Shown here: in pieces, positions 6,786 through 52,202 of the stretch | Numbering within the stretch: the stretch's first letter is position 1 | Layout of the letters: each line of letters opens with the position of its first letter | Assembly: GCA_951406725.2 (NCBI GenBank) | Contig: OX597825.1 | Coordinates: forward strand, 27,590,001 to 27,654,000 | Direction: 5' to 3' | DNA: 64,000 nt | Source of the DNA: Octopus vulgaris | Lineage: Eukaryota | The notes under the pieces: generated by a model | Told to the model about the DNA's origin: nothing | The model's database searches: none | What the model saw: the letters and a program-made list of their open reading frames with translations, nothing else | Translations under genes and position numbers: made by a program

Positions 6786-7861
6786 CAGTCATGGCAGAAG
6801 TATATTGACACTACATAAAACATCGTTTTGCGTTTATTTTAACTTGAAGAGGATTGTATTTTTTTATTACTTGACATTTTTATGTCTCAGGTTTATATGT
6901 GTCTGCTTAATTATGCCATATATAAAAGAGGCATCGGAACTGTCCGAATTTCAAAGAGCCCATATTGTGGGTCAATCTGAAGTTTGACCTAGTCAGATAA
7001 AAATCGCAGAAACCCAGAAAGAAGGAGTCCACATCATCTCGCCCAGATCGGCCAGAACCTCCTGACAGGAATCTTCACTTCGTTAAGAGGATAATCCTCA
7101 ATGCAAGGCCCCTGACGTAGCAGAACAAGTTGATATCAATCCTAGTGCAGCTGTCGGGTATCTCCAAAAATTAACGACTAAGGCAGAGCAGCAAGAAGGA
7201 GGCTACTTCTTCGACAAGCCTACATCAAGCGTAGGAATCATCGGGCTGCTGAGATGGTCACTAGCATTTTGGGACACTGTCATATTCTCTAATGAATCCA
7301 GAATTGCTCTATTTTCTGACAGTGGTCGAGTGTGTCTCTCTGGGGACTTTATGATAAAGAATTTGACATGGAAAGATTTCAGCCAACAGTGAAACTCGGC
7401 AGCTATTCTGTGATGTCTAGGGGGCAGTGTAAAGCAATGGTCGATAAGAGCTGGTGGAGTGTGAAGTAAACCTAATAAACTCAGATGAATATCTATCCAT
7501 ATTGCAGAAAGGACTCCTTCCAATCTTCTCCAATGGTCAAATGAGTAAAGACTTTTCATGGAAGATGTGGTCCTTATAACGTCGCTAAAAAGACCCAAGA
7601 TTAGTTGAAAGGGAATGGCATTAAACGGCTACCATGGCCCAGCCAGTCACCAGATATGAATTCTATTGAATGCTTCTGGGGAATAATGGACAGATCACTT
7701 CATAAAAAGAACAGGAAAGCATCACCAAACCCAAATCGTTTGTGATTACTCCATGAAATTTGGCAATAAATTCCTCAAGAGAAGATTTGTCATCTGATCA
7801 GAACATGTCTAACAGGGTTCTTGCATTGAAAAATGCAAAGGGTATGTCTAGTAAATATTAG
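6786..7861 (+). mobile_element. Decayed Tc1-family DNA transposon (transposase pseudogene 6913-7861)
   Basis: TA|CAGTC 5' end. Motifs ELSEFQRAHIVG, WDTVIFSNES (catalytic D->N), FMED, WPSQSPDMNSIE and C-terminal NAKGMSSKY*. Multiple stops and frameshifts. Confidence 0.9.
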
Positions 7862-51205: not shown

Positions 51206-51282
51206 GATACAGAGAAACACAGACACACATACGTACACACTCATACATATATATTATATATATATATACATATATATATATG

Positions 51283-51324
<42 letters not shown>

Positions 51325-51332
<8 letters not shown>

Positions 51333-52166
51333 ATATAGAGGGCATTATACATACATGCCAGAGGGCATTATACATACATGCCACACGCTAAGAGGGACAA
51401 TTAGTCATTTCTACCAAAAATATTACATTTTTTTTTAAATGTCTTACTTTGAAAAATTGCATTCGGTGGGATTAGTAATATTTTTGGTAGAAATGACTAA
51501 TTGTCCCTCTTAGCGTGTGGCATGTATGTATAATGCCCTCTGGCATGTATGTATAATGCCCTCTATATATAAATTAATATGTTCAATAAGAAATAATTAT
51601 TTTCGAAATTTTTTCTCTTATGAGGTTTTCACGCTATCTACCTGACAATTTCTTGTTAAGTTTTCCTTATTAAGTAGTTGTCCTTAATTGCTAAATTTTT
51701 ATTCCGAAAAAACTTCTCCTTTTCCGAAATGCAATTCGTAAAAGTCTGCCATTTACCGGATGTAATATATGTAAACTCACCCATGTGCTTCGTTGATGTT
51801 GATCAGTTAGCTGATCGGCTTAAGCGAGGCAGGGTCGTTTATGTATGATACATCCAGGCCTGCTGATGAATACGTAAGTATGAAATCACTGTGATACAGG
51901 TCTATATTTTTTAAATGTCTTACTTTGAAAAATTGCATTCGGTGGGATTAGTAATATTTTTGGTAGAAATGACTAATTGTCCCTCTTAGCGTGTGGCATG
52001 TATGTATAATGCCCTCTAGCATGTATGTATAATGCCCTCTATATATAAATTAATATGTTCAATAAGAAATAATTATTTTCGAAATTTTTTCTCTTATGAG
52101 GTTTTCACGCTATCTACCTGACAATTTCTTGTTAAGTTTTCCTTATTAAGTAGTTGTCCTTAATTG

Positions 52167-52169
<3 letters not shown>
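51325..52169 (+). mobile_element. Young ORF-less PLE-type / retrozyme-like element: inverted repeat fragment plus two 263-bp direct repeats plus a hammerhead
   Basis: 51431-51693 matches 51907-52169 (period 476, one substitution seen); 51325-51426 is the reverse complement of 51475-51576; (TA)n on both sides. Confidence 0.85.
51856..51903 (+). ncRNA. Canonical type I hammerhead ribozyme
   Basis: Stem I AGGCCUG/CAGGUCU (7 bp, one G-U); core CUGAUGA; stem II AUAC-GUAA-GUAU; GAAA; stem III AUCA-CUG-UGAU; triplet AUA, predicted cut after 51896. Confidence 0.9.

Positions 52170-52202
<33 letters not shown>

Follow-up and report, generated by a model that had tools for sequence, protein, structure and literature searches.

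A young non-coding hammerhead family of Octopus vulgaris inserts mostly as head-to-head arms with one of each of two fixed ends and is likely mobilised by Penelope-like elements

The closest described relatives of the element analysed here are the animal non-LTR retrozymes, for which an AT-rich, non-coding unit containing a single type I hammerhead, tandems both partial and long, and the coexistence of Penelope-like elements (PLEs) have been reported (PMC7229834; bioRxiv 10.64898/2026.07.22.740005), all of them features that the octopus family shares. How retrozymes are mobilised is left open in these two accounts, as is, in PMC8557442, the way in which PLEs form their tandem and inverted ends. 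A similar resemblance exists with the EN+ Neptune PLEs, in which a partial tandem is accompanied by an inverted 5'-truncated copy, with a "tail" at one end, microsatellite targets and two internal end sites (PMC8557442; PMC3846280; PMC11167929 for PAc), and for which the occurrence of the tail at one end only has already been stated qualitatively (PMC8557442; PMC3846280). Neptune elements are further marked by a CX2-5CxxC linker and a microsatellite bias (PMC8557442). In vitro, a purified PLE protein, modelled as a dimer, cuts AT-rich DNA, extends both strands and starts at two internal sites of the RNA (PMC11167929). Finally, non-autonomous PLEs of the MRC1 type from Chlamys are, like the octopus family, non-coding and occur with pseudo-LTRs and as head-to-tail multicopies (PMC8557442).

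The element under study occupies positions 51325 to 52169 of the window, i.e. the whole 64-kb stretch of O. vulgaris DNA that was analysed, and is embedded in (TA)n, with a left TA-rich target tract at ca. 51240-51324 and a right one at 52170-52199. The left arm (51325-51426, reverse strand, 102 nt) matches positions 45-146 of a 476-nt unit, read as reverse complement, without any mismatch, and the right arm (51431-52169, forward strand, 739 nt) corresponds to 1.55 turns of the same unit, with four nucleotides at the head-to-head junction (51427-51430) belonging to neither. The right arm starts with a first 263-nt repeat (51431-51693, unit 1-263), continues with the remainder of the unit (51694-51906, unit 264-476; 213 nt of unique sequence), in which a long predicted hairpin (51758-51855) precedes a type I hammerhead motif (51856-51903), and ends with a second 263-nt repeat (51907-52169). 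Both repeats, one 476-nt period apart, differ by a single mismatch (51542 G vs 52018 A); the left arm, which falls within the 263-nt repeat and not upstream of it, has the G at this position, like the first repeat. Its outer end, named S1, lies at unit 141-146 (first pass 51571-51576, second pass 52047-52052), and that of the right arm, named S2, at unit 263; these are the putative first and second start sites of the reverse transcriptase (RT), and the predicted RNA domain around S1 (51486-51642) is a candidate protein-recognition element. The original prediction had described near-identical 263-nt repeats, a 102-nt inverted piece, about 210 nt of unique sequence and (TA)n on both sides, an architecture that is borne out here, as is its non-coding nature, since the longest ATG ORF of the unit (GC 34%) is of 43 aa. 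Beyond the assembly, the unit was present in contigs of 20 of the 24 sequencing runs listed, from 7 studies; none of the contigs examined from independent runs spans the window locus, so that support from runs extends to the unit, not to its arrangement at this place. Elsewhere in the window, short frames at 7087-7628 resemble what we take to be a relic of a Tc1/mariner transposase.

Searches of the 2.8-Gb assembly placed this element, as one of many copies, in a young non-coding family with a hammerhead motif, hereafter family A. The unique part had 938 candidate matches genome-wide, the best 40 of which are 97-100% identical, and two exact 27-mers, one of them covering the hammerhead core, had 119 and 253 matches, respectively, with none for the reversed-pattern controls; the many independent copies that the original prediction had called for were thus found. 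The mean difference between insertions of family A is 2.4%. A clan-wide hammerhead pattern matched 1,641 times (control, 0) and two related groups were recognised, a sister subfamily (51 matches, local identity to family A of 76-94%) and an older subfamily that is ca. 70% identical (1,660 candidates). Family A is recognisable by a 23-nt stretch duplicated in tandem immediately upstream of S1 (51518-51563), of which both subfamilies have a single copy. Two or more units in a row that each carry a complete hammerhead, which is the preprint's criterion for an "active" retrozyme and is applied here at the family level, occur at loci L029, L079 and L101 and in a 31-hammerhead array. None of the runs listed with the unit is recorded as RNA. 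Contigs from runs guessed to be RNA do contain the unit, and one of them closes on itself round it, but genomic tandems would produce this just as well, and such contigs were not taken as a sign of expression.

Non-LTR retrozymes are characterised by a short tandem unit with a GC content under 45%, and family A, with 476 nt and 34%, appears to fit this already known kind while being itself a new family. The unit is longer than the 170-400 nt given for invertebrates but lies inside the 51-972 nt of the preprint (bioRxiv 10.64898/2026.07.22.740005), and its RNA is predicted to be highly self-paired, as in other non-LTR retrozymes. Family A mostly occurs as dispersed two-armed (TA)n insertions with fixed ends, for which no description was found in the retrozyme texts consulted, and its unit has no homology to the PLE terminal repeats that were tested. 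The original suggestion of an undescribed system is not supported, for both non-LTR retrozymes and their link with PLEs had already been published (PMC7229834; bioRxiv 10.64898/2026.07.22.740005).

The hammerhead of the window copy comprises a helix I of 7 bp, a CUGAUGA core, a helix II of 4 bp closed by a GUAA loop, GAAA, and a helix III formed by an 11-nt palindrome, with cleavage predicted after 51896. It matches the layout of the canonical metazoan type I motif, in which helix I has about 6 bp and helix II has 4 bp, helix III being weak and palindromic (PMC4209133), except that at the base of helix II the G10.1-C11.1 pair is replaced by A-U; other subfamilies have G-U or G-C there. It is the sole match of the core descriptor in the 64-kb window, and the full descriptor was matched in one of 100 local shuffles. 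Rfam returned nothing at gathering score and no hammerhead family at E<=10, the only hits being hairpin look-alikes below the cut-off. When folded as a single strand, helix III of the lone motif is not predicted, and co-folding of two copies yields a full dimeric hammerhead; the palindrome predicts activity as a dimer. The window copy has one hammerhead only, so that release of a monomer from this copy by itself is not expected.

The circular unit has a predicted folding energy of -136 kcal/mol, compared with -89 +/- 6 in 60 shuffles (z=-8), and among the 38 full units, 20 of which were aligned, double changes occurred at 8 of 131 predicted pairs, including helices I and II of the hammerhead, these being few events between subfamilies, not independent samples, for a structure derived from one member. 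In the older subfamily, helix I is wholly different but still paired, and the palindrome of helix III is retained. S1 is enclosed by predicted helices (51486-91/51637-42 and 51511-17/51630-36, plus a GGCAT/ATGCC hairpin) in which 98% of the pairing is kept across subfamilies, with two compensatory pairs among 9 sequences. Fold energy and compensatory pairs in the hammerhead and other stems together suggest that the unit RNA is under selection at the RNA level.

The insertion pattern was analysed for 90 insertions at 88 non-redundant loci, picked among the listed matches of the unique part and of the two 27-mers; this choice by similarity to the window copy, partly via the hammerhead, favours young copies and long arms. 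Five duplicate loci, together with overlapping loci from the second 27-mer, were dropped before counting, and L017, which has the same right flank as L008 and hence is no independent locus, is single-armed and outside the scorable set. Two arms were found in 64 insertions, always divergent (head-to-head), and one arm in the other 26. Of 154 outer ends, 142 lie at S1 (unit 141-146) or S2 (unit 263-266), 71 at each, these sites being about 118 nt apart. Among the 52 two-armed insertions that could be scored, 51 combine one S1 with one S2 end, the window copy included, and in the remaining one both ends are at S2 (P=1.2e-14). In each of the 12 two-armed insertions that were not scored, one end lies away from both sites. 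Single-armed copies also end at S1. Flanks are TA-rich on both sides in 57 of the 90 cases, on one side in 28 and on neither in 5, according to a crude 30-nt score, and target-site duplications are unreadable within (TA)n. The same pairing of ends occurs in an unrelated 353-nt hammerhead family, family B, in which all 12 clean two-armed insertions have mixed ends (19 loci, with also one complex and six single), and in coding Neptune-type PLEs (8/8 two-armed insertions among 37 loci). Copy count and insertion architecture thus support the original view of a young, hammerhead-bearing, non-autonomous element of PLE type with a 476-nt unit and many independent copies.

Family B itself (L061:3558-4765, L263-L292) is younger, with 2,554 candidates, the best at 99%, arms of up to six units and (TA)n targets; its two end sites are separated by about 45 nt, and two insertions at L061 join it to family A. 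The same TA tract contains a third insert, likewise small and with inverted arms, family C (L061:5500-5885; also L105:2889-3013), with no hammerhead seen in the piece. Further hammerheads were observed, namely a family with a long helix II (L161:2551 and 3014, with a 463-nt spacing; L226:670-770; L063:6730) and two more motifs with a 6-nt palindromic helix III (L065:358, L074:6439, L080:2125, L034:595-720).

Taken as a whole, family A probably represents a young, (TA)n-landing non-LTR retrozyme that a Neptune-type PLE mobilises in trans; the enzyme of this PLE would cut both strands and prime twice on the same, probably circular, RNA. Loci with at least two hammerheads would give rise to multimeric RNA, which would cleave itself through dimeric hammerheads and be ligated into a 476-nt circle, a step in which our confidence only slightly exceeds our doubt. 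The RT-GIY-YIG protein, very probably that of a PLE, would bind the RNA near the S1 domain and cut (TA)n on both strands. It is then quite probable that cDNA starts at S2 from one DNA end and at S1 from the other; each cDNA would run for a random length through the hammerhead and round the unit before the two inner ends are linked, in many cases through 1-5 nt that they have in common. As a more tentative extension, which we would not yet hold as probable, a dimeric enzyme may sit on one circular retrozyme RNA, its subunits occupying S1 and S2, respectively, prime from both strands of a cut (TA)n tract and read round the circle. This rule would be common to coding and non-coding passengers and would involve recognition of RNA shape, not sequence, and the copies would then document how PLEs come by their inverted ends.

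As regards the template, the first repeat of the window copy does begin 10 nt past the cleavage position one period upstream, as originally pointed out, but this is not a feature of the family. Indeed, its reading as the sign of a self-cleaved template amounts to chance, since only 2 of 154 inner ends fall within unit 462-472, with 3.55 expected. Inner ends are scattered round the unit, those within 12 nt of the cleavage site numbering 9 of 154 before refinement (8.1 expected), and at most inner junctions the two arms overlap or sit a few bases apart. Furthermore, the cleavage site is crossed 141 times by 111 arms, including that of the window. Scattered inner ends and arms crossing this site indicate that the linear cleaved monomer, one of the forms initially proposed, is not the template, which would be a circle or an uncleaved multimer.

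In the second case, priming at both ends would take place in the same family on an uncleaved linear multimer transcribed from tandem arrays, the hammerhead acting elsewhere or slowly. This is possible, if rather unlikely. An array able to supply such a long RNA does exist: in a two-armed insertion extending from L323:2140 to L324:7745 (G000:C1:64.640-64.655 Mb), the right arm ends at S2 after 31 hammerheads and about 15 kb. Moreover, insertion of PAc in vitro does not depend on hammerhead cleavage (PMC11167929), and no ligation scar was seen at the unit junction, a private indel next to the site being present in only 1 of 138 junctions. The preferred reading is also weakened by the lack of in vitro cleavage in eight of nine dimers of frog retrozymes (bioRxiv 10.64898/2026.07.22.740005). 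On the other hand, 11 arms exceed 900 nt and occur in several haplotypes, which is easier to understand if length is regained at each round and argues against an uncleaved linear template. Compensatory changes preserve the hammerhead as well as the fold of the whole unit, and retrozyme RNA of coral, mussel and axolotl exists mainly as circles (PMC7229834).

The 31-hammerhead insertion might supply multimeric RNA and might connect insertion with satellite. Examined for rolling-circle copying, it keeps the S1/S2 rule but has nested shared variants: 30 units were compared and 10 variant events found, 3 of them private, with nested variants common to non-adjacent units, which indicates that later expansion, conversion or assembly error contributed. 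When between-unit differences were inspected for recurrence, as a possible trace of linear templates, 116 of 139 types were seen once, and most of the others coincide with a base run or the end of an arm. At five loci, the turns or arms of a single insertion differ by C/T at unit position 293 (window 51723), which borders a base run and is perhaps a hot spot of reverse-transcription slips or an alignment effect.

Minor alleles at 30 shared polymorphic columns were shared vs discordant in 145/15 comparisons between turns of one arm, 140/11 between arms of one insertion and 5919/42184 between insertions. Both arms of an insertion were thus probably copied from one template, and often by independent syntheses, as judged from their extents. 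Shared variants could also reflect gene conversion after insertion, or two RNAs that a single source locus had produced, but both possibilities account less simply for the one-of-each rule. At L061, an arm of family A runs into the 353-nt family B over 3 shared bases, a template switch suggesting that the two families share their machinery.

A single priming at S2, after which the cDNA would fold back and copy itself and the endonuclease would trim the duplex at the TA-rich S1, is close to self-priming and EN-resolution ideas already in print (PMC3846280; PMC8557442) and is improbable as an account of the family. S1 is TA-rich, as is the target; the S1 arm is contained in the S2 arm in 26 of the 51 mixed pairs, among which is the window copy; and near-perfect palindromes, with inner ends within 10 nt of each other, are in mild surplus (6/51 vs 2.25 expected, P=0.024). 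Containment in the opposite direction, which this scheme does not provide for, accounts for 5 more pairs, so that 31 of 51 are compatible with fold-back in one direction or the other. In the remaining 20, neither arm lies within the other, and 5 of these have no shared sequence at all, which excludes fold-back copying as the general route. In addition, the lengths of the two arms are uncorrelated (rho 0.02, n=51) and S1 terminates single-armed copies as well. Fold-back may hold for a minority of insertions.

Two independent starts, one at each site, thus remain the preferred reading, and the insertion signature makes a PLE the likely class of the mobilising enzyme. At least three young families with intact RT+GIY-YIG frames of 781-784 aa, 65-71% identical to each other and ending in (TA)n, occur in the genome. 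These three have a CX4CX2C linker, an upstream ORF, variant hammerhead-like cores and two end sites ca. 30-40 nt apart, the linker being that expected of Neptune-type elements. In their representatives (L065:1244-6460, L224 and L239), the upstream ORF, of about 440-480 aa, overlaps the RT frame and has no clear Pfam family, and the cores are U3-A8 variants. By comparison, family A has no ORF and a CUGAUGA core, and its tail of ca. 118 nt exceeds both the 30-40 bp of published PLEs (PMC8557442; PMC3846280) and the ca. 30-40 nt of the coding PLEs of this genome. Coding PLEs also form head-to-tail tandems (L240), so that tandems alone are no proof of a circle.

It is very improbable that the piece is merely the terminal repeat of 5'-truncated copies of a coding PLE with no independent life. 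Its layout is that of PLE pseudo-LTRs with an inverted upstream copy (PMC8557442; PMC3846280), and the comparison covered the three young PLE families and 30 GIY-YIG loci, a part of those in the genome; with these the unit shares no sequence, and no chimera of family A with a PLE was found. What lies upstream of the repeat, at a 476-nt period, is the unit again, never an ORF. Young PLE coding sequence is joined to none of the 90 insertions, nor to the copies at 22 sister-subfamily and 21 clan loci, so that the case originally named as refuting, a terminal repeat of a coding PLE without independent copies, did not materialise among these loci. Since the RT+GIY-YIG ORF between pseudo-LTRs is absent from the family copies, they are not autonomous EN+ PLEs. 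The Chlamys non-autonomous PLEs are described as generally resembling an autonomous family at their 3' end and as mostly devoid of canonical hammerheads (PMC8557442), unlike family A, which has a hammerhead and for which no partner was found.

PLE relics, 30-60% identical, lie near five of the insertion loci. Three candidate associations with coding sequence were rejected: three hammerheads at C1:70.536-70.539 Mb, which might have bordered a coding PLE, belong to distinct insertions within a single TA tract; the match at L038 beside a GIY-YIG relic is a separate insert of the older subfamily; and the 311-aa ORF adjoining the sister-subfamily copy L186 interrupts that copy. The latter reads like, and presumably is, the 3' part of a LINE-type RT.

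An assembly artefact or chance motif, which the microsatellite flanks and the want of a contig across the locus in the runs examined might suggest, can be practically dismissed, given that dozens of loci follow one rule while differing in haplotype, that the unit is present in runs of 7 studies and that the reversed-pattern controls gave no match.

The kind of family described here is known; what is new is the rule by which its ends are paired, together with the tests against fold-back. Neither a count of S1 and S2 ends nor a two-primer model was found in the literature searched, which consisted mostly of material outside subscription journals and supplements. The use of one end of each type, by arms that appear to have a template in common but in many cases were not copied from one another, ties the two starts and two strands observed in vitro with a purified PLE protein (PMC11167929) to a genomic structure, and argues against fold-back as a general route. 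Finally, young passengers and intact candidate enzymes occur in one and the same genome, which makes the question of how such elements are mobilised directly testable.
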